IMG/VR virus record: IMGVR_UViG_3300030098_006570 | Location: 64,001 to 128,000 of that record | Source: a virus | Reading direction: 5' to 3' (one strand) | DNA length: 64,000 bases | Part shown: positions 3,039-54,628 of the stretch, piece after piece | Position numbering within the stretch: position 1 is the stretch's first letter | Layout: every line of letters starts with the position of its first letter | Notes under the pieces: model-generated | Told to the model about the DNA's origin: nothing | The model's database searches: none | The model's input: the letters and a program-made list of their open reading frames with translations, nothing else | Position numbers and translations under genes: made by a program

Positions 3039-5978
3039 TTATTCTTCCACCTTTAGAGGCTTCATCGGAGCCACCTTATTAATTATCTCTTTATTGGAAA
3101 TTCTGGTGGCGGATATGAGGGGAGTTGTGATTTGCCAAGTTGGGACATTTGCAATGGGATTGTCCACATTGACACTAACATCTTTCTCACTACGATGAAT
3201 TAACTGTTGTATCGCTTCATAAAAAGTTCGATAAGGAATATAATTTCGATCCGTAGAGGCCATCGAGGCGTTACCTACCAAGAACAGATTGTCATAATCC
3301 GACAAACCTAAGAGGTTCCCCCCGGAGGTTACATTCGTGGTCTCCTGTAGTCGACACAATAAGAGTGTATTATTCTGACGAGCAAGAGCATAAAGTTCCT
3401 CCGTCAGCAAAGTCCATCTAGGCTGGTCAATCATGACCGTTCCATTGCCAGATGTCTGATACCCGTTGAAATACTCGACTCTCTTGATAGAGTTGAGGTT
3501 AATTCCCGTGGTTGCCAAATTATGACTAGGCACCAATTGAGGATCTACTTGGGCTTTTTTTGCGGCTAAAGAGGTGGCAACCCCCTCTAGATTGACAGCT
3601 TTGACATCTTGTCTAAAGCCCGCTATAGCGCTATTGAGCAGAACCGCCACTAGACCCGAAGATCGAATTCGTATAAAAGCGTTATTTTTCTCAGGGGACG
3701 CGTAGTGTAAGATGTTCTGCTCCGAGCCCGATATATTAGCCTGTGTTGTAGCCCCATCCCGAACAAAAACAGATCCTGAGGAGAGATATGTCGAAGAATC
3801 GACAGCACGCAAATTTGCGGCTTCGGCGCTTGTGGCCGTAGGAAGTCTTCGTACAGTTTTGATGTCCTGCGCAAGAGGAGTCACTGAAATACCAGAAGCG
3901 CCCAGAATCGAATCAATGTCCCCAACCGGGGGCGAATCTGCACCCACGGTGGTATGAAAAGATAGCTGAGATGTCGTAGGCCGAATCTTGGTGGCCAGCA
4001 AGTCTACCGTATTCTGGAGTCCCACATCAAACATTGATGTATCGATAACGTTCGTCGGGGTATTTATCCTCTTAGGTGTAAGATAGCCAGCCTTATTGAC
4101 TTGAGCAGCGTTAGGGCCCTCGACCTTAAATTTACTAATTTCGGCCCCTAGGCGTCCCTGAAATTGTGTATGAGGAATTCTGCTAAGGCCCCGGGTTTCC
4201 GTAACCAAATTCTCGTCTAAGTAGTCAAATCCGGTCTGGGCATCATGGGTGTTTTCATACGTGTTGGGAAAGACCCGCTGGTACTGAACTCTGCGCGCTG
4301 AGGACGTTGATGTGCTCATTTTAGATCTCACGCTAAATTTAGCGCTGCTCTTGCCCAAGGTAGGCGCCATGACGACCTGGTTAAGAGCGGAGTAAAAGGA
4401 GCGCACGAGCGCGCCAACTTCACGAATATTGGAAATGCTCCCGTTACTAGGATTTGACAACGAGAGAAGGTTTTTGCGCCAGGTAGCCATCGAGTGACTC
4501 CCAAACGCTGCGCGTCCGAAAACAAAAACCACACATGCTAAATAAGTATCCAACAAGCCTTTCCAGGCAGCATCCTGCCGAAGAACCAGCCCTTGCGCTC
4601 GAAGGCGGCGGTTAACCTCTCTAGTATCGGAGCCATGTTGGGCGTTCTCCATTCTGCTCACCCACTTATCATAATCTGTTAATGCTTTCTTGAGCTGACG
4701 AAGGAGATAATGTAACGCGCCCACGCTATTGTCAACACCCGTAATTTCTAGAGTATACTCATAAGTTCCACCGTCTTTAGAGGCTATCTCTACGTCTGTG
4801 GCGACATAGTTGGTAACCCCGGCGGCCTGATTTGCGAAGTCCACACCAACTATGGTTCCGTCCTTCTGAGATGCGACCAACTTTGGAGCGCTCTGTGCCT
4901 TTACTCCACAGATATTCAACTTACCTGGAGTGAGAGCAGTCGCAGAGATATTGGGTCGGATTCTCGTGCGATAAAGCCTAATATCCTCAACCTCAAAACA
5001 ACTGTTGAGAGCCTCCTTGTTGGCAACCAAAAAATTGAGCCGAGTGTTCGCCTGAACAAATTGTTTGTAGTTGATCGCGAACATAGCTTTCAGAACGTTT
5101 GTGCGAGTCCGAGAAAAATAAATATCAGATACCCCGGTGCTCGTCTTTCCAACCACGTTCCGAATGACTTGCGCATCCTTAGTCATGCGCCGATTAAGTG
5201 TCAGTGTAACCTCACTCAACCGCGAGATAAGTTTCCCCTGCTCAGACATAAAAGACTTATCTTGCATCTTTTGATTTGAAACTACAGAAGAAACCAAATA
5301 TGGATGCTTGTCGGCAACATGAGTGGGGCCGGCCATGACGCGGCCGTTGTGACGATGAATGGGCCCTGACCAAATGTCGCCCTTCTTGCCATACCCTTCC
5401 ACTGACTCGCCAAGACGATAAACCATCCCCATAGTGGACACTCTATTTTCTATATAGATGGTCTCAACTGCTGGATATCCTATCTTTATCGCTCGAATCT
5501 TAGTGCTCACACCCGACTGTGTAACATCCTGAGGGTTTACTTTATAGGCAACAGCATAAACATAAAGATTAGGCCACTCGTCGCGGCGTAAATCTGGCAG
5601 CGTTACGCGGACTCGGCGCTGTGAGATGGCGGTAGCTGTGGCTTTCTCCACTACGACCTGTTCATTAAACTGTTTTGTAGTCTTGCTTAGGTCCCCAGGC
5701 AGGTACATTTTGCGAGATTCTTTTGTCTGCATCCCATCGTCAGCTATGCAGTGCTTGACGACAGATTCTTGTTGCATCAGGCCTGCAATCGCTGAATCAT
5801 CATCACTGAATACTAACATGACTCGGTAGGGAGACACAAGACTCCAGGATGTAGGTACCTGATATAGCAACTCTATCTCAACTTTATTGATACCCATTTC
5901 AGGCATCGCACGAAAATTGATCTGGTCGATCACCACATTGGGCAATGAGTCGCGGTATAGGCCGGGGGCAGCGTCCAT
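3039..5978 (-). CDS. Hypothetical virion structural protein (979 aa)
   Basis: Long ORF translationally coupled to both neighbours. Confidence 0.65.
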   Translation of the reverse strand: MDAAPGLYRDSLPNVVIDQINFRAMPEMGINKVEIELLYQVPTSWSLVSPYRVMLVFSDDDSAIAGLMQQESVVKHCIADDGMQTKESRKMYLPGDLSKTTKQFNEQVVVEKATATAISQRRVRVTLPDLRRDEWPNLYVYAVAYKVNPQDVTQSGVSTKIRAIKIGYPAVETIYIENRVSTMGMVYRLGESVEGYGKKGDIWSGPIHRHNGRVMAGPTHVADKHPYLVSSVVSNQKMQDKSFMSEQGKLISRLSEVTLTLNRRMTKDAQVIRNVVGKTSTGVSDIYFSRTRTNVLKAMFAINYKQFVQANTRLNFLVANKEALNSCFEVEDIRLYRTRIRPNISATALTPGKLNICGVKAQSAPKLVASQKDGTIVGVDFANQAAGVTNYVATDVEIASKDGGTYEYTLEITGVDNSVGALHYLLRQLKKALTDYDKWVSRMENAQHGSDTREVNRRLRAQGLVLRQDAAWKGLLDTYLACVVFVFGRAAFGSHSMATWRKNLLSLSNPSNGSISNIREVGALVRSFYSALNQVVMAPTLGKSSAKFSVRSKMSTSTSSARRVQYQRVFPNTYENTHDAQTGFDYLDENLVTETRGLSRIPHTQFQGRLGAEISKFKVEGPNAAQVNKAGYLTPKRINTPTNVIDTSMFDVGLQNTVDLLATKIRPTTSQLSFHTTVGADSPPVGDIDSILGASGISVTPLAQDIKTVRRLPTATSAEAANLRAVDSSTYLSSGSVFVRDGATTQANISGSEQNILHYASPEKNNAFIRIRSSGLVAVLLNSAIAGFRQDVKAVNLEGVATSLAAKKAQVDPQLVPSHNLATTGINLNSIKRVEYFNGYQTSGNGTVMIDQPRWTLLTEELYALARQNNTLLLCRLQETTNVTSGGNLLGLSDYDNLFLVGNASMASTDRNYIPYRTFYEAIQQLIHRSEKDVSVNVDNPIANVPTWQITTPLISATRISNKEIINKVAPMKPLKVEE

Positions 5979-47440: not shown

Positions 47441-47516
47441 TGGCTGCGGCCGCTGGGCTCGAACCAGCGACCCGTTGATTAACAGTCAACTGCTCTACCA
47501 ACTGAGCTATACCGCA
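47441..47516 (-). tRNA. tRNA-Asn(GUU)
   Basis: Cloverleaf UGCGGUA/GGCCGCA-G-CCA, D arm GCUC/GAGC, anticodon arm GUUGA-CU GUU AA-UCAAC, T loop UUCGAGC; A7-G66 mismatch. Confidence 0.92.
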
Positions 47517-47783
47517 CTATTCTTCTTTTTGCAAGTATACAACATTTCCTTCTTCTCTAAAAGTTTTTATTTCCTCTACAATCTCTTCTATTTCTTCCAC
47601 TTCCCACGGCATGGGGATTAAGCCGTGATGTGACATTCCTACTTCTAAATAATTCAAGCGTCTCCAGACATTAGAATTAATTTTTTCCTGATACTTCTGA
47701 ATCTTAGTTAGTACCCACAGCGTGATCACATTGAAAAAGAATCCTAATATGGCTATAAATAATACTAATTCAACTGTCATCAT
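47517..47783 (-). CDS. Hypothetical membrane protein
   Basis: N-terminal TM helix. Confidence 0.6.
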   Translation of the reverse strand: MMTVELVLFIAILGFFFNVITLWVLTKIQKYQEKINSNVWRRLNYLEVGMSHHGLIPMPWEVEEIEEIVEEIKTFREEGNVVYLQKEE

Positions 47784-48231
47784 TTTCTGGCTGTTCTACA
47801 ACCTCCCACGTTTGATCGGGAAGTAATTCGACCTCAGCCAGAAAAGTACCGGGATCCACCCGGTGCCAGTATTGGGGCGCTATCAACGAAAGAAAATGAC
47901 TTTGGTCTTTTCTTTGATACAAATAATAATGCTCTCCAATCACGGGCTCTATGTTAAAATCCGCCTCATAAATAACCTTTGAGACGTTTACTCGTTCTTG
48001 TACTTCTTTTGCTTGTTCCATAATTATTTCTGCCTGTTTCTTAAGTTTTTCTATTTCTTTTTCCGCATATTTCTCGGCCGCGGAAATGGCCCGGCCCTTC
48101 AGGGTACTCATATCATTAGGCACGATAGCAGGAGCGCCCACATTCGTCCCATAGGGTTTTATATTAGCATCAAATTCTTCCGTCTCATAGTTATACACTA
48201 CATTATCTGCAAATTTTTTATCTTTTGCCAT
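47770..48231 (-). CDS. DUF2452-like protein
   Basis: Likely start MAKDKK. EPVIGEHYYLYQR...FLSLIAPQYW. Confidence 0.7.
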   Translation of the reverse strand: MAKDKKFADNVVYNYETEEFDANIKPYGTNVGAPAIVPNDMSTLKGRAISAAEKYAEKEIEKLKKQAEIIMEQAKEVQERVNVSKVIYEADFNIEPVIGEHYYLYQRKDQSHFLSLIAPQYWHRVDPGTFLAEVELLPDQTWEVVEQPENDDS

Positions 48232-48242
48232 TCGATTGCCTT

Positions 48243-48650
48243 CTACCAACGATGATCCTTTCCGGCCCAATCTTTAAATTTTTCTTCCCCGCCGCGAATC
48301 GCCCAATCCGAATCAATAGTAAGTTTGGAGGAAAGGCCTCCCCGGGGGTTGAAATCCATTTCCAAACGCAAACGATTCGGCTCGTAGACTTCTTTCAAAT
48401 CATCATAAACCACATTGATGAGCCGCTCATACGAAAGCAGCCGATTGCGAAAATCCTGAAAATACTTTTTTAGGGATTTCAACTCAATTATACTATCTTT
48501 GGGATAAAAGACAATCCAAACCGTTGCAAAATCCGGCTGGTCCTTGACCCCAATAAAAGTAACCTCCGGGTTCTTGATATTTATTTCATAACCATCCCCT
48601 GAAGGGTTTGGCAAAGTCTTGAGCAGCGACTTATTACTCCATGTTCTCAT
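48243..48650 (-). CDS. QueF-family T-fold protein lacking the catalytic Cys
   Basis: QPDFA, ELKSLK.Y, FNPRGG present; no cysteine anywhere in the 135 aa. Confidence 0.8.
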   Translation of the reverse strand: MRTWSNKSLLKTLPNPSGDGYEINIKNPEVTFIGVKDQPDFATVWIVFYPKDSIIELKSLKKYFQDFRNRLLSYERLINVVYDDLKEVYEPNRLRLEMDFNPRGGLSSKLTIDSDWAIRGGEEKFKDWAGKDHRW

Positions 48651-48660
48651 ATATTCTCCT

Positions 48661-48736
48661 TGGTGCCGGCGCCACGAATCGAACGCGGGACCTGCGGGTT
48701 ACAAAACCGCTGCTCTACCAACTGAGCTACACCGGC
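48661..48736 (-). tRNA. tRNA-Thr(UGU)
   Basis: GCCGGUG/CGCCGGC-A-CCA, anticodon loop UUUGUAA, T loop UUCGAUU. Confidence 0.92.
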
Positions 48737-49347
48737 GTTTTATTCATTATACTAGGTCTGACCCCAGAATTCAAGACAATTTGGCAAATGTGTTCCAGAC
48801 GCTCTATGTGCTCAAAGGCGTCCCATGGATTTTTTCCGACCGCACATACTCCATGATTTCCTTGTCCCACCACATCGTATTCCGGCTTGCCCGGGCGTAC
48901 GCCCAAGGCTTTAGAAGTAGCATCCGCCAAGGCCTGAGAGACCGCTGGGAGCACTGGAACATTGGGGCCCACGCGCGTGTACCTATAGATCTCGGGAAAC
49001 TGGCTCGCCATGATCTTGAGATCCCAACCGGCGTACATTGCTGCCACGATATTAGTGGAATGTACATGGAGAACACAGCGAGTCCTCACCGCGTCTTTTA
49101 AAATCTGCCAGTGCATCTCTAGCTCCCCAGAAGGGTTTTCCACCCAGGGCTTGTCAGCCAACGAGCCGTCTTCCGCAATGCGAATAGATTTAATAAACTC
49201 GGGATATATCAGATTCTTTCTCACCCCAGAGGGAGTGATATATATTTTCCGATCGCCACTCTTACGGAGTGAACAGTTGCCATCGCGCGTAGTTATCCAC
49301 CCACGCTTATAACACTCTCTCATCACATCGCCGATTGCTGTTATCAT
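48727..49347 (-). CDS. Class II aldolase/adducin family protein
   Basis: DGNCSLR, ITPSG, PSGELEMH, LHVHS, NHGV. Confidence 0.88.
   Translation of the reverse strand: MITAIGDVMRECYKRGWITTRDGNCSLRKSGDRKIYITPSGVRKNLIYPEFIKSIRIAEDGSLADKPWVENPSGELEMHWQILKDAVRTRCVLHVHSTNIVAAMYAGWDLKIMASQFPEIYRYTRVGPNVPVLPAVSQALADATSKALGVRPGKPEYDVVGQGNHGVCAVGKNPWDAFEHIERLEHICQIVLNSGVRPSIMNKTPV
48746..48774 (-). promoter_or_regulatory. Sigma70-type promoter upstream of tRNA-Thr/queF-like
   Basis: TTGAAT-17 nt-TATAAT, ending 9 nt before the tRNA. Confidence 0.7.
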
Positions 49348-50898: not shown

Positions 50899-51417
50899 TT
50901 AGTTGAAAAAACCAGTTTTGTGATAAACTGTGCCGGAAACTCTTATAGATTCTCCCTCCGGAGGTGGTATATAGATGGTGAGAGCCTGATGATCTTTGTC
51001 TGGTGGGCGCCATATTATCTGCAGAGCGTTAGATTCTGGCGCCCATATCGAATCGAACTCGTTGCCGATATTATTTTCATAGTGATTGTAACAATTATAA
51101 TTATTATTAGTAAGACTCGCGATTAAAGTATCATGCAAGTCATAACCTGAATTAAGGATTACATCCCTGCCACAGATGGAAAAGAATTGCTCTTCCTCTG
51201 TGTCTCTTTCAATAGCTAGGCTGACGAATCCAGATAGCAGTGGAGTGTCGAGTTGCTTATCGCACCAAAAGACCAATGTACTGGGGCCTTCATTTTTACT
51301 CCACCAGCAGTCCATGATTGCATATTCTTCACCGTATTCTTGAATTCTAATCTCCTCTTCCCCTATATTAGAGCAAGAACAAAGTAGAAGTAGTAAGCAA
51401 ATTACAATCTTATTCAC
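50899..51417 (-). CDS. Putative lipoprotein
   Basis: MNKIVICLLLLLCSC lipobox-like signal. Confidence 0.6.
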   Translation of the reverse strand: MNKIVICLLLLLCSCSNIGEEEIRIQEYGEEYAIMDCWWSKNEGPSTLVFWCDKQLDTPLLSGFVSLAIERDTEEEQFFSICGRDVILNSGYDLHDTLIASLTNNNYNCYNHYENNIGNEFDSIWAPESNALQIIWRPPDKDHQALTIYIPPPEGESIRVSGTVYHKTGFFN

Positions 51418-51431
51418 CTTATATTAATTAT

Positions 51432-51460
51432 AATATAATAAAGTTATTTGTAAGATGCAA
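51432..51460 (-). promoter_or_regulatory. Sigma70-type promoter
   Basis: TTGCAT-17 nt-TATATT upstream of 51417. Confidence 0.55.
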
Positions 51461-51476
51461 GCAAAAAGTATATTAT

Positions 51477-51559
51477 TGGTGGAGGTGCACGGAGTCGAAC
51501 CGTGGTCCTGAGAATGCCATTGCAGGATTTAATCTCAGTCGAATTCCCAAACCACCCCC
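51477..51559 (-). ncRNA. Miniature tmRNA-like RNA (tRNA-like domain only, 83 nt)
   Basis: GGGGGUG/CACCUCC-A-CCA acceptor stem with G3.U70; stemless D-loop ending AAUUCGAC; P2-like helix UGAGA/UCUCA closed by a 19-nt loop; GGAC linker; T arm CACGG-UUCGACU-CCGUG. Confidence 0.8.
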
Positions 51560-51590
51560 ATTTAGTCCTTGACAGGCCAAAATAATTAGG

Positions 51591-51947
51591 TTACCATTGG
51601 TTTATGTCGTCTTTTTGTATCCTATACTTTTTCTTCAATACTTTTAAGGTCTCATCAGTGACTCCTAAAATTCTCGTCATTTCTTTATTTGTGTTAGCTA
51701 TGCTAACAACAGAATTGAAGAGAGCTTCTTTCACGAGAGCCACCGTATTGGACCATAGGTTAAAACCATATAGTTTGCCATTAGTTAGACGACTGGCGCA
51801 CTCAAGTTTGAGACCAATAATTTCTTCCAGAGTTAATGCAGAAAGCATTATTTCAAATGCTTCATTTGACTTTCCGTGGTTCCTCAGCTTTTGTGAGAAA
51901 GAAATATCACTGCAAAAACCCTGGGAATCTGACTTCCGGGGTTTCAT
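51591..51947 (-). CDS. Hypothetical protein, possible C-terminal HTH
   Basis: TNKEMTRILGV; coupled to the upstream gene. Confidence 0.6.
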   Translation of the reverse strand: MKPRKSDSQGFCSDISFSQKLRNHGKSNEAFEIMLSALTLEEIIGLKLECASRLTNGKLYGFNLWSNTVALVKEALFNSVVSIANTNKEMTRILGVTDETLKVLKKKYRIQKDDINQW

Positions 51948-52760
51948 CTATAATAAGTTTTCGATAATATCGTCTATATCTAGAAAATTAGCTATTTCTT
52001 GTAGCTCAATGTTGGCAACGGTATCTTCTTCCGCCTCTTCGGCACTGGCGTCACCCACCGCGGCCGCCGCTGCAGCGGGTTCGGGCACATCTGTCTGCAG
52101 TTCTGTCTCGAATTTGTCAAAATACAGCGCAAGATTTTTTAGTAGATACTCCTCAAACATAGCAATATCGTCGGCGTTGTCAAGGTCATCATATGCTGTA
52201 AGAATGCTCTTCTCGATGTCTTGGAAGTCGGTGAATGCGCGGTTGCGTCCAGTCTTATCTTCCCCATTAAGCCCAAACTCTGACTTGGGATCGACTTCAA
52301 CCTCTTCTTCGTCATCGATACTAATAAAATCCGGATCATCTTCGGGCCGGTCGCCAATATCAATTTCAATATCTTCATCGATTGGGGCCCCGAGTTCCTC
52401 GTCTTCCCCCGCCTCTTTGCGAGATTCTTCGGGGGCAAGTGATTTTTCGACAGCAGCTAAAATATGGTTACGATATGATTCACGCTGCTCCACCGCGGTG
52501 GTAAGGGACTTATATCCGGTCTCTATAGTTGACAAAACATTAGTGTTTCGTAGAAGGTCCTCTAGAGCATTGATTCCCGTACTGTCATGTTTGGCAACTG
52601 CTGCAACGGCAGCACTTTCAGTAATAAGGTCACGGATAATCTGGCGAAGTTCGTGCTCTTGGTTACTCTTATGCTCTCTGCGAGATTTTACAATCCGAAT
52701 CGCATCACGAACTGCTTCTCTCAATTGGATTTCCTGTGCTACTTCTGCTCGATCAATCAT
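51948..52760 (-). CDS. Acidic hypothetical protein (candidate internal head protein)
   Basis: ELRQIIRDLITE leader-like segment; very D/E-rich; upstream ACTATTTA. Confidence 0.65.
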   Translation of the reverse strand: MIDRAEVAQEIQLREAVRDAIRIVKSRREHKSNQEHELRQIIRDLITESAAVAAVAKHDSTGINALEDLLRNTNVLSTIETGYKSLTTAVEQRESYRNHILAAVEKSLAPEESRKEAGEDEELGAPIDEDIEIDIGDRPEDDPDFISIDDEEEVEVDPKSEFGLNGEDKTGRNRAFTDFQDIEKSILTAYDDLDNADDIAMFEEYLLKNLALYFDKFETELQTDVPEPAAAAAAVGDASAEEAEEDTVANIELQEIANFLDIDDIIENLL

Positions 52761-52762
52761 TT

Positions 52763-54628
52763 TTATCCCACCGATATACCTAATAAATAGTCCATTATTT
52801 CGTTTACAAACTGGTCTTCCACAGATTCATTGTTCGAAGTTTTTTTCTTTTTGCGCTTCTCAGATCCAATCACATCGGGGAAAGTAGTGGCAAACCCTGT
52901 CACCGCGCCTCCCGACTGCGCGCTCATTTCATCAAGCTGTTCGCCAAGTATCCTCATTATATCAGCTACATCGCTATCATTTAACTCTGTAGGTAACCCG
53001 CGGATAAAGCCAACATCATCGTCATCACGAAGAGCTTTCCTCATCATGGTGGCACTTACTCCTCCCATCTGCGGAGGAATTGGGACTTGCTGTACATTTA
53101 CTCCTTCACGACGACCTTCGGCCGTCTTGAAGCGCCCACCTTCGACATCTTTTTCTCCCAAGATAAGGTGCAAGTCTTCCCCGACGTCGGCTTCGTTGTC
53201 AATGTATTCATAGACAGAACGCACAGGCGTCACATCTGCAACTCTAACATCTACATCACCAGGCAAGTGTTGGCGGTAAACGTTCCAAATATTGACGGCT
53301 TGTTGAGGAGTAATTCCTTCATGAACTTTTGGAGAGACAAATATAATGATCTTATCCACTCCGGGGTTACTTAGCACCGATTTAGCAACATTGAAGTGGC
53401 CGCCATGAGGTGGCTTAAACTTTCCAGGGTAAAGAGCAATGTTACGCACCCCCTCGACGGGTACCCTCTCTTCTTCAGCTAGGCCCTGCTTGGAACGATC
53501 TCCATGGGTAGAGGCCAGCCCTTGAACAATAAAATCTCCTGTAAGTTTGACTAGGAAATCTTCCATCCCTCGTAAAACAACACCTTCATGGGATCCAACT
53601 GGACCAGCCATACTGCGCAAAGCTTCTTTTACCGCTTGCCCTAGGAGTCGAGTGCCATGATAAAAAATACCTCCATTGATGGCGTCTTTGACGTCTTCTT
53701 TGGAGGCAAGATATTCACTTAAAGGTATTCCATTTTTCTCGGCGCTGCGTAATACTGCCATATAAATATCTTTACTTAGTGCTCCCACGGATTTCCCATC
53801 AGCCCGGGTAACACGAGTATCTTGGGGGTGCTCTACCATCTGGAGCCATTCTCGTAATGTGTTTGTGGCCACCCCGCCAGGAGTAACCTGAACGGACACT
53901 GGCGTCTCTAAAACTTCTTCTAGATTCAGATCATAATCCGGATCAAACTCCACTGGTACATCACCATATACTTCAAAACCATATTTGGCTGCAATGGGGC
54001 GCACTTTTTCAATAAGTCGTGCTAGGGCTGCGTGATCATAAGGAATTTCGATTCCACCACCTTTGACGGGCTTTCTCGTCTTGGGGTCTATAGGGCGCTC
54101 AAGCCCTGGGCGATCCATGGAAATCCCTTTTCGAATCATATGGGGCTGGGCTTTTTTTTCATAGAACTGGTTGATGCCATGAATAGCCAAAATATTGGAA
54201 TCATATTCCTGGACGTTAGACTTCCCTTCAATATATTCGGTATTGAAATATTTTGTAGGGTCATCCCACATTTTGAGCGCTTTAAGTTCCGGAGTGATGG
54301 CTGGAATAGCCGCATTGAAAATAGTTAACAACTTAGCTATAGCATTAGCCATGCCATGATCGGATCCCCACTTTGCTAAAGCACTTTCAGCATCAAAGCC
54401 CTCAATTGAGGCAATATGAGAGGTTCCGCGATCCATGCGAAACTCTTTTTGACCATCCTCGTTGGTAATCAGCTTAAAACTGGTATTGATGCCATCCCAC
54501 TTGACGCTGCCGGCAATTTCATTGTTTTGAAGACGCACAACAGCGTCCTGGATATAATCAATGAGGTCTTGCCCTGTTTTTACGCGGTCGACATCAAAAG
54601 GGTGCGCCATATGGCCCGGTGTGCCCAT
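52763..54628 (-). CDS. Ligase-like nucleotidyltransferase domain fused to a HIGH-family cytidyltransferase-like domain
   Basis: SVKWDG, NTEY, HEGVVLR, VKLTG; then YPGKFKPPHGGH...GVSATMMR. Confidence 0.65.
   Translation of the reverse strand: MGTPGHMAHPFDVDRVKTGQDLIDYIQDAVVRLQNNEIAGSVKWDGINTSFKLITNEDGQKEFRMDRGTSHIASIEGFDAESALAKWGSDHGMANAIAKLLTIFNAAIPAITPELKALKMWDDPTKYFNTEYIEGKSNVQEYDSNILAIHGINQFYEKKAQPHMIRKGISMDRPGLERPIDPKTRKPVKGGGIEIPYDHAALARLIEKVRPIAAKYGFEVYGDVPVEFDPDYDLNLEEVLETPVSVQVTPGGVATNTLREWLQMVEHPQDTRVTRADGKSVGALSKDIYMAVLRSAEKNGIPLSEYLASKEDVKDAINGGIFYHGTRLLGQAVKEALRSMAGPVGSHEGVVLRGMEDFLVKLTGDFIVQGLASTHGDRSKQGLAEEERVPVEGVRNIALYPGKFKPPHGGHFNVAKSVLSNPGVDKIIIFVSPKVHEGITPQQAVNIWNVYRQHLPGDVDVRVADVTPVRSVYEYIDNEADVGEDLHLILGEKDVEGGRFKTAEGRREGVNVQQVPIPPQMGGVSATMMRKALRDDDDVGFIRGLPTELNDSDVADIMRILGEQLDEMSAQSGGAVTGFATTFPDVIGSEKRKKKKTSNNESVEDQFVNEIMDYLLGISVG

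Follow-up and report, generated by a model that had tools for sequence, protein, structure and literature searches.

Results

A tRNA-like tmRNA gene without a tag-coding domain

The element described here occupies positions 51477-51559 on the minus strand of the window, by which we denote the whole 64,000-nt stretch of DNA analyzed (bases 64001-128000 of its IMG/VR virus record). That record is 148,084 bp long and has an estimated completeness of 82%. The record has a GC content of 47.6% and carries 133 of its 152 ORFs on the minus strand; sheath, major head protein, portal and large terminase genes mark it as a myovirus, with Microcystis phage Mel-JY01 and the Flavobacterium 'immuto' phages as its nearest isolates at about 46% terminase identity. 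Read letter for letter, the element runs GGGGGUG, GUUUGGGAAUUCGAC, UGAGA, 19 nt, UCUCA, GGAC, CACGG, UUCGACU, CCGUG, CACCUCC, A and CCA for a total of 83 nt, exactly the layout given in a preliminary description of the locus.

The 5' strand of the acceptor stem (GGGGGUG, 51553-51559, RNA positions 1-7) holds G3 and pairs at seven of seven positions with 51481-51487, the latter belonging to a segment that comprises the acceptor 3' strand CACCUCC, the discriminator A73 and the encoded CCA end (51477-51487, RNA 73-83); G3:U70 with A73 constitutes the AlaRS identity set (PMC3968760). Between the two acceptor strands lie, all on the minus strand, a stemless D-loop region (GUUUGGGAAUUCGAC, 51538-51552, RNA 8-22) ending in UUCGAC; a helix 2a (H2a) of UGAGA and UCUCA that with C22-G52 makes six contiguous pairs and closes the 19-nt interior (51509-51537, RNA 23-51), itself featuring a weak CC/GG hairpin of -1.6 kcal/mol; a GGAC linker (51505-51508, RNA 52-55); and a five-pair T arm (CACGG-UUCGACU-CCGUG, 51488-51504, RNA 56-72).

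Over its full length the element aligns with the Rfam tmRNA model RF00023 (model positions 1-374); the score of 54.6 bits (E = 1.1e-18) exceeds the gathering score of 47 bits, and this is the only tmRNA-type hit in the 148-kb record. In the alignment 308 interior model positions are gone, with about 15 nt in their place: pseudoknots PK1-PK4 are absent, as is the mRNA-like domain with its resume codon, tag frame and stop, only 19 nt separating the H2a strands and the ARAGORN tag search being negative. On direct reading the interior holds no tag reading frame, its sole GCA-started frame entering the T arm without a stop. What is present is a tRNA-like domain (TLD) with a 7-bp acceptor bearing G3:U70, A73 and CCA, a T arm and a stemless D-loop, both halves lying in standard order within one gene of less than about 100 nt that has no tag CDS, as in the TLD-only or CDS-less type represented by phage DS6A. 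The central claim of the preliminary description, a complete TLD with the whole mRNA-like domain missing, is thereby borne out, the Rfam search being one of the checks it had proposed. ARAGORN, the second program it proposed, does not call the element in either the window or the whole genome, where tRNA-Asn and tRNA-Thr are its sole calls. The single-sequence fold energy is no better than that of shuffles (z = -0.65), and the case for structure thus rests on homology and covariation.

Other class assignments were weighed and rejected. A permuted two-piece tmRNA, already dismissed in the preliminary description from the order of the parts, is indeed incompatible with that standard order, with an RF04321 score of only 19.6 bits against a cut-off of 47 and with the lack of any coding piece or tmRNA* in the genome according to ARAGORN. 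A tRNA-Ala is called by neither ARAGORN nor the Rfam tRNA model, and the element has no anticodon arm. An attP fragment of an ssrA-integrating phage is excluded because both TLD halves, the 5' one included, are present and no tyrosine integrase (PF00589) was found in the 148-kb record. The idea of a loop stop codon serving as a zero-length tag was set aside: a UAA or UGA follows H2a in many members though not in all, and a tetraloop-capped member of the short class (see below) cannot present a codon.

Genomic neighborhood

Upstream of the mini-tmRNA gene (hereafter the mini), up1 (51591-51947, minus strand) encodes a 118-aa all-helical protein that is conserved across relatives and marks the tmRNA slot discussed below; it has no hit in Pfam, PHROG or NCBIfam, a weak HTH_8 lead and a low-confidence, all-helical AlphaFold model (pLDDT 55.8). 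That up1 and up2 are real minus-strand genes follows from their frame, in which the second codon position is the least variable and the proteins of kin are 58-73% identical, vs. 49-59% in the overlapping plus-strand frame. A 427-aa plus-strand ORF at 51604-52887 was rejected as a shadow of up1 and up2, with which its third codon positions coincide; no stop interrupts it in the window or in the six kin whose sequence covers it. Farther upstream, the 621-aa up3 (52763-54628, minus strand) has a weak match of the NMNAT/adenylyl/cytidylyltransferase type at residues 392-441, within its C-terminal half. No support for a ligase-like fold of its N-terminal half was obtained from Pfam, NCBIfam or PDB sequences, and the PDB sequence search with up3 found nothing.

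On the other side, a sigma-70-like promoter match (CTTACA-16-TATAAT, 51427-51454, minus strand) is located just downstream of the mini and ahead of dn1 (50899-51417), and no riboswitch or other RNA family was detected beside the mini gene. The tRNA-Asn and tRNA-Thr genes, the only other tRNA-type genes of the record, are found on the mini's strand 3-4 kb away. Within 47441-49347 (minus strand), 2-4 kb downstream of the mini, they lie on either side of a QueF-like gene (48243-48650) and a DUF2452 gene, and a class II aldolase-like gene follows; together these genes form a small tRNA/queuosine-related neighborhood. We found no SmpB gene in the 148-kb record and no tmRNA-type gene in either Mel-JY01 or immuto.

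A family of mini-tmRNAs under selection in phage DNA

IMG/VR was scanned with a pattern consisting of GGGG, 8-18 nt, TTCGA, 20-50 nt, a T loop, 8 nt and TCCACCA, which after removal of duplicates gave 94 unique sequences among the matches listed, with one locus added by a stricter pattern. Features that the pattern leaves free recur throughout: among the matches listed, TTCGAC is present in 77 of 94 and the T stem is preceded by GGAC in 70, all seven acceptor pairs form in 114 of the 122 pattern matches listed (the window's own counted), and D-loop residues G13 and C22 as well as the GGAC linker are at least 90% conserved in the 66 long-class members listed. A covariance model (R1) built from 19 phage sequences, the window left out, scores members at 55 bits or above and both tRNAs and permuted-tmRNA pieces at 44 bits or below. 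The window's mini reaches 68.9 bits and the DS6A element 55.9 bits, and at least 89 distinct members, these two included, are separated in this manner.

Across the 89 members 96.9% of cells form standard pairs, vs. 67.6% in shuffles and about 50% with slid partners, and 513 cells carry double changes vs. 142 expected, where the counts come from a model-guided, model-fitted alignment of sequences whose sampling pattern imposed GGGG, TTCGA, the T loop and TCCACCA. Covariation extends to 15 of the 19 pairs, among them all seven H2a pairs, with changes on both sides, and four of the five T-arm pairs, the T arm being paired in 100% of cells. Furthermore, among kin found via the RNA, in which the mini sits between up1 (118 aa) and dn1 (172 aa) as it does in the window, the mini is 86-94% identical and the flanking genes 65-84% identical at the DNA level. 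Together, these data give substance to the view put forward in the preliminary description that the helices reflect selection rather than decay, the covariation among phage homologs that it had named as a check being plainly present. The window element is a genuine, selected, tag-less phage mini-tmRNA gene of an already known type.

Mini lengths are bimodal among the matches listed, with a short class of 63-71 nt, mostly featuring a 6-7-bp H2a with a tetraloop cap, and a long class of 76-86 nt to which the window's mini belongs; long-class interiors fold better than their shuffles (-2.39 vs. -1.19 kcal/mol, p = 2e-8). Scans for longer interiors, run to completion, returned 141 contigs, mostly tandem-tRNA artefacts, and only about 20 unique genuine forms of 98-140 nt, which indicates that among reduced tmRNAs the mini is a discrete and prevailing type, followed by no more than a thin tail of longer ones. 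In those roughly 20 forms (L320, L341 and L355 at 140 nt; L255, L283 and L285 at 106 nt; also L251, L316, L350 and others) the TLD is intact and the interior far too short for the pseudoknot ring.

As for genomic context, tRNA neighbors are found within 200 nt in 24 of the 113 loci listed and within 20 nt in 15 of them, the tRNAs of inspected arrays lie on the same strand as the mini, and a second tmRNA near the mini was seen in none of the 113. ARAGORN calls four of these loci as tmRNA and two as tRNA-Glu, with no call for the remaining 107. Among recurrent neighbor clusters nameable by Pfam, those common to different mini subfamilies include neither SmpB nor any other translation-related protein partner: the shared neighbors so named, ERF, DnaB, DUF3310, endonuclease VII and PD-(D/E)XK, are replication and recombination genes, and several other clusters have no Pfam match.

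The mini pattern was also run on the genomes of about 186,000 species, where it matched only 66 places; about 29 of these, many of them on short MAG contigs, reach the scores of minis. An 11-kb contig binned as 'Candidatus Iainarchaeum' carries two tandem minis (L142:6146-6224 and L142:6308-6373, 58 and 70 bits) and is probably a mis-binned phage contig. Minis of 84 nt occur on Nostoc contigs (L149, L172, L173, L174, L176 and L178) and in further filamentous cyanobacteria (L136, L154 and L197), on contigs of about 17 to 310 kb, the majority above 100 kb; the genes adjoining the mini of L172 gave no phage signal, only a VWA/CoxE-like protein. Lastly, an 81-nt mini is found at 3956-4036 both in L090 from IMG/VR and in L162, from Prochlorococcus single-cell genome AG-409-P03. 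With equal size (130,604 bp) and equal mini position the two are very likely one contig, in which case it would be a phage caught in or on a Prochlorococcus cell.

Universal G3:U70 and the case for alanine charging

As the first pattern imposed G3 and U70, the scan was repeated with positions 3 and 70 free. G3:U70 was found in all 83 unique matches listed with an intact 7-bp acceptor and also, on reading the printed sequences by eye, in three further matches that the regular expression had begun 3 nt too early, while every other combination in the rescan belonged to a tRNA or to a match with an incomplete acceptor. In the family as delimited by R1 the pair is present in 89 of 89 members, with acceptor pairs 4-7 varying freely. 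G3:C70 is one transition away and more stable, yet was seen in none of the members listed, which argues that charging is under selection.

These observations bear directly on the possibility that the mini is a pure sponge, sequestering host SmpB with charging and ribosome entry irrelevant. The conserved elbow hallmarks speak for such a role. A pure sponge, however, would tolerate G3:C70 and would leave unaccounted for the presence of G3:U70 in 100% of members listed while neighboring acceptor pairs covary freely; the encoded ACCA of every pattern-recovered member listed points the same way, with the qualification that the patterns required ACCA and that the DS6A element, found by Rfam, ends in ACUA. 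We therefore consider the pure sponge unlikely, and the conservation pattern argues that charging would matter to the mini. It is also important to note that Mao et al. 2009, as cited by later authors, observed inhibition irrespective of RNA chargeability: charging may thus be dispensable for inhibition, and G3:U70 could be retained for some other reason.

Tag-less and tag-encoding genes in a single slot

Since kin found via the RNA are a sample biased toward minis, relatives were sought instead through alignment of the up1 protein, which yielded 28 loci. Nine of these carry an 82-83-nt mini 35-55 nt after up1, and eleven carry in the same place a full-length, one-piece tmRNA of 312-368 nt (Rfam 101-135 bits; e.g., L366:2895-3208), such that up1 directly precedes the one or the other gene in all 20 relatives that carry either. 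The full-length carriers include L366, L370, L376-L382 and L388, and the tags encoded by the sister tmRNAs are ANDADYGLALAA, ANEADYGLALAA, ANDANYGLALAA, ANDADYDLALAA or ANNTAHFESYALAA. The preliminary description had foreseen full-length tmRNA at homologous loci as a sign of recent deletion or assembly collapse; the first part holds true in these eleven relatives, and the second does not follow, given the analyses presented below.

Both flanks of the slot are shared. Upstream, a conserved motif (TGTCAAGGACTAAAT, 51560-51574, minus strand) abuts the mature 5' end of the window's mini and is common to the sister loci, in which TTGTCAA[GC] is found 12-22 nt upstream of mini and full-length genes alike in nearly all of the phages, the most distant one, L388, being without it; considered as a recurrent promoter, the motif does not recur within the window. 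Downstream, the window's flank is homologous to that of the full-length loci L379, L370 and L366, so that essentially nothing but the RNA gene differs. In the six mini-bearing kin L367, L368, L373, L374, L375 and L383 the CCA is followed after 8-9 nt by a small ORF (starting MI.WLK.RIS.KL..FS.EKLKAFLKK); this ORF is absent in the window, in L384 and in the full-length loci. A blastn comparison with 50,697 phage records gave no match for the region, for a sister full-length tmRNA or for another mini locus, and among the cultured phages of this collection none has a tmRNA resembling the sister full-length genes.

A tag-encoding tmRNA in the same slot also bears on a different kind of explanation, in which the mini serves another tRNA-like role: as an RNase P/3'-end processing or stabilizing signal for the up2-up1 transcript, or as a decoy for host anti-phage nucleases that cut tRNA or tmRNA. 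The mini does close the up2-up1 unit on its 3' side, with the promoter-like site right behind it, and many family members reside within tRNA arrays. A processing signal would nonetheless not need G3:U70, the SmpB-site hallmarks or the tmRNA-type D-loop, and a complete tag-encoding tmRNA in the slot of sister phages ties that slot to trans-translation, which renders such a role highly improbable.

An old allele exchanged among related phages

The phylogeny of up1 does not follow the form of the RNA gene. The window, a mini carrier, is sister to the full-length carrier L366 (support 96/94), the minis L374 and L375 are nested in a 100/100 clade of full-length carriers, and at least three changes of state between mini and full-length are needed on the tree; an AU test rejected a single clade of mini carriers, a group named after the tree was seen (delta lnL 59.4, p = 0.0008). 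The TLD halves of the minis, on the other hand, average 94% identity among themselves and 77% (73-84%) to the full-length genes. The window's mini is thus 96% identical to that of L374 despite 61% up1 protein identity, and 73% identical to the tmRNA of its up1-sister L366. As the minis form one RNA lineage and yet are scattered over the tree of the flanking gene, they represent no fresh deletion: the sequence evidence indicates that the mini is an old, separately evolving allele moved among related phages by recombination. Within kin minis, compensatory changes are moreover found at the first H2a pair (U-A vs. G-C) and in the T stem (A-U vs. G-C).

The same comparisons weigh against the mini being a nonfunctional remnant, whether through recent deletion of a full-length phage tmRNA, assembly collapse or an ssrA attP fragment. 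In its favor are the full-length genes in the homologous slot of eleven relatives and the resemblance, albeit no more than a resemblance, of the mini interior UAAAACCUGCAAUGG to the 3'-proximal CUAAACCUGUGAAUGAC of full-length genes, which is consistent with an ancient deletion as the origin of the mini. Against it, the mini form recurs in nine contigs besides the window's own, all ten from different IMG/VR sample numbers, which rules out assembly collapse; the minis' TLD halves resemble one another far more than the full-length genes; compensatory changes within kin are matched by family-wide covariation; and attP fails on the intact halves and missing integrase noted above. The remnant explanation is hence largely refuted and barely credible.

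Discussion

The gene described here has been characterized with respect to its identity and architecture, the selection acting on its helices and AlaRS pair, its tRNA-like context and its allelism with tag-encoding tmRNA. We propose, with moderate confidence, that it specifies a functional phage TLD-only tmRNA, a processed, alanine-charged and SmpB-bound competitor of host tmRNA that adds no SsrA tag. In this model transcription of the mini RNA would most likely accompany or directly follow that of up1, and tRNA-like trimming would yield a molecule that folds into an acceptor stem, a T arm, a stemless D-loop and a short helix 2a. The RNA would then be charged by host AlaRS via G3:U70, A73 and CCA and bound at its elbow by SmpB from the host, the phage having no SmpB of its own. 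Alanyl-mini with SmpB and EF-Tu would in turn be a rival of host tmRNA, both for SmpB and for ribosomes that have stalled, and since the mini has neither a resume codon nor a tag frame, stalled products would receive no SsrA degradation tag. The predicted net effect is that host trans-translation is damped or redirected during infection. Expression, charging, SmpB binding and the effect on tagging are all deduced from the gene's sequence and its conservation.

Published work on tmRNA is in line with several of these steps. SmpB binds the TLD elbow, for which the D-loop/T-loop interaction is required (PMC3968760), and it protects tmRNA and enhances its alanylation (PMC11915505, PMC4131195, PMC3929946, PMC3968760); together with SmpB, fragments of the TLD show activity on ribosomes in vitro (PMC3929946). 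A DS6A-like molecule is described as strongly inhibiting tmRNA in E. coli (PMC4131195; PMC11915505, citing Mao et al. 2009), and titration of SmpB has already been proposed for the DS6A element according to the same two papers, both citing Mao et al. 2009. SmpB titration and tag-less ribosome entry, offered in the preliminary description as a reading of the window's RNA, thus correspond to the hypothesis published for DS6A; for the present element we infer them.

Template-free alanine tailing is a further alternative, in which Ala-mini/SmpB complexes would enter the vacant A site one after another, so that stalled chains gain one or more alanines. Synthesis of polyalanine without template in vitro is cited for SmpB combined with a TLD fragment (Shimizu and Ueda 2006, cited in PMC3929946), natural tmRNAs with a tag of just Ala-Ala exist (PMC11915505), and the charging determinants are universally retained in the minis. 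Tailing would, however, leave unexplained the inhibition reported for nonchargeable variants, and we judge it very unlikely. A broader proposal, distinctly unlikely in our estimation, has the mini not as a passive sponge but as a charged, ribosome-entering device that ends stalled translation with untemplated alanine(s), the tag-less and tag-encoding forms being alleles of one slot shuffled by recombination. If so, the two forms would give different, host-dependent benefits, for instance against a trans-translation-based host defense.

Returning to the tag-less competitor model, it is important to note that the tag-encoding tmRNA in the slot of sister phages fits a function in supplying rescue as well as one in blocking it, and that phages with full tmRNA would appear to do the opposite of mini carriers. 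This lineage is consequently a natural contrast, in which close phages with shared flanks hold either a tag-encoding tmRNA or a tag-less TLD at one slot, and what a phage gains by adding the tag, or by leaving it out, can here be put directly to the test. Universal G3:U70 likewise provides a sharp discriminator between the sponge and charged-competitor models.

As the kind is already known, the single gene is no discovery. The preliminary description took tag-less tmRNAs to be known mainly from mitochondria; the phage DS6A example, of the same length and architecture, had already been published, and the novelty so implied was overstated. The worthwhile additions are the breadth of the family, the universality of G3:U70 and the allelism of mini and full-length genes at one slot. 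TLD-only minis are common in phage DNA, and their family is far larger than the curated record: two pattern scans recovered at least 87 distinct viral members, vs. 79 phage sequences and, overall, nine 'Standard, no CDS' forms in the 2025 tmRNA database (PMC11915505).

Comparison with known systems

The closest known counterpart is the TLD-only ('Standard, no CDS') tmRNA of Mycobacterium phage DS6A, which is credited to Mao et al. 2009 in the papers that cite it (PMC4131195, PMC11915505) and which we located as an unannotated, 83-nt element between gp33 and gp34 (JN698994 28478-28560, Rfam 43.2 bits). Like the window's mini it is phage-encoded, intergenic and unannotated, 83 nt long and in standard order, with G3:U70 and A73, a stemless D-loop ending in CGAC, an H2a stem, an A-rich bulge with a short inner hairpin, a T arm and no tag frame, and both are recognized by one covariance model. 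The differences are equally clear: DS6A is a temperate actinophage of 60 kb, whereas the window phage is a myovirus of about 150-180 kb distantly related to 'immuto' and Mel-JY01; the DS6A element ends in ACUA rather than ACCA; identity outside the hallmarks is low; and the window's mini is allelic with a full-length tmRNA in sister phages.

Those sister tmRNAs share with the window's mini the slot after up1 and the TLD plan and differ from it in their length of 312-368 nt and in their tag frame; other full-length phage tmRNAs are of the mycobacteriophage Bxz1 and Melnitz types (PMC4131195, PMC9004378). Searched alone against the phage records, the 83-nt query matches only tRNA T arms and Ruegeria phage RpAliso. 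In this cultured roseophage a tRNA array is followed, about 0.8 kb downstream, by a tmRNA-like 3' half that bears a T arm and CACCUCCACCA and has no annotation (OR257569 about 2874-2956; L224:1453-1535). We rejected it as a mini, only the 3' half being present and the score being 32 bits, and it probably represents a permuted tmRNA's acceptor piece.

Engineered TLD fragments offer a structural parallel. The construct crystallized with SmpB in PDB 2CZJ, as described in PMC3929946, is 63 nt long and joins the 5' 25 nt and 3' 34 nt through a UUCG loop; such fragments, which bind SmpB and act on ribosomes, are in essence equivalent to a natural short-class mini (63-71 nt, with a tetraloop-capped H2a). 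They are, however, laboratory constructs, and the window's RNA belongs to the long class with its 19-nt interior. Tag-less tmRNAs are also found in organelles, namely in jakobid mitochondria and as forms of about 65 bp in Mallomonadaceae plastids (PMC11915505), and they resemble the phage minis in having lost the mRNA-like domain and kept the TLD. The mitochondrial genes are mostly permuted, occur together with an SmpB that is dedicated and targeted to the organelle, and take the place of the cell's own tmRNA, whereas the phage mini, unlike these organellar forms, would act beside an intact host tmRNA.
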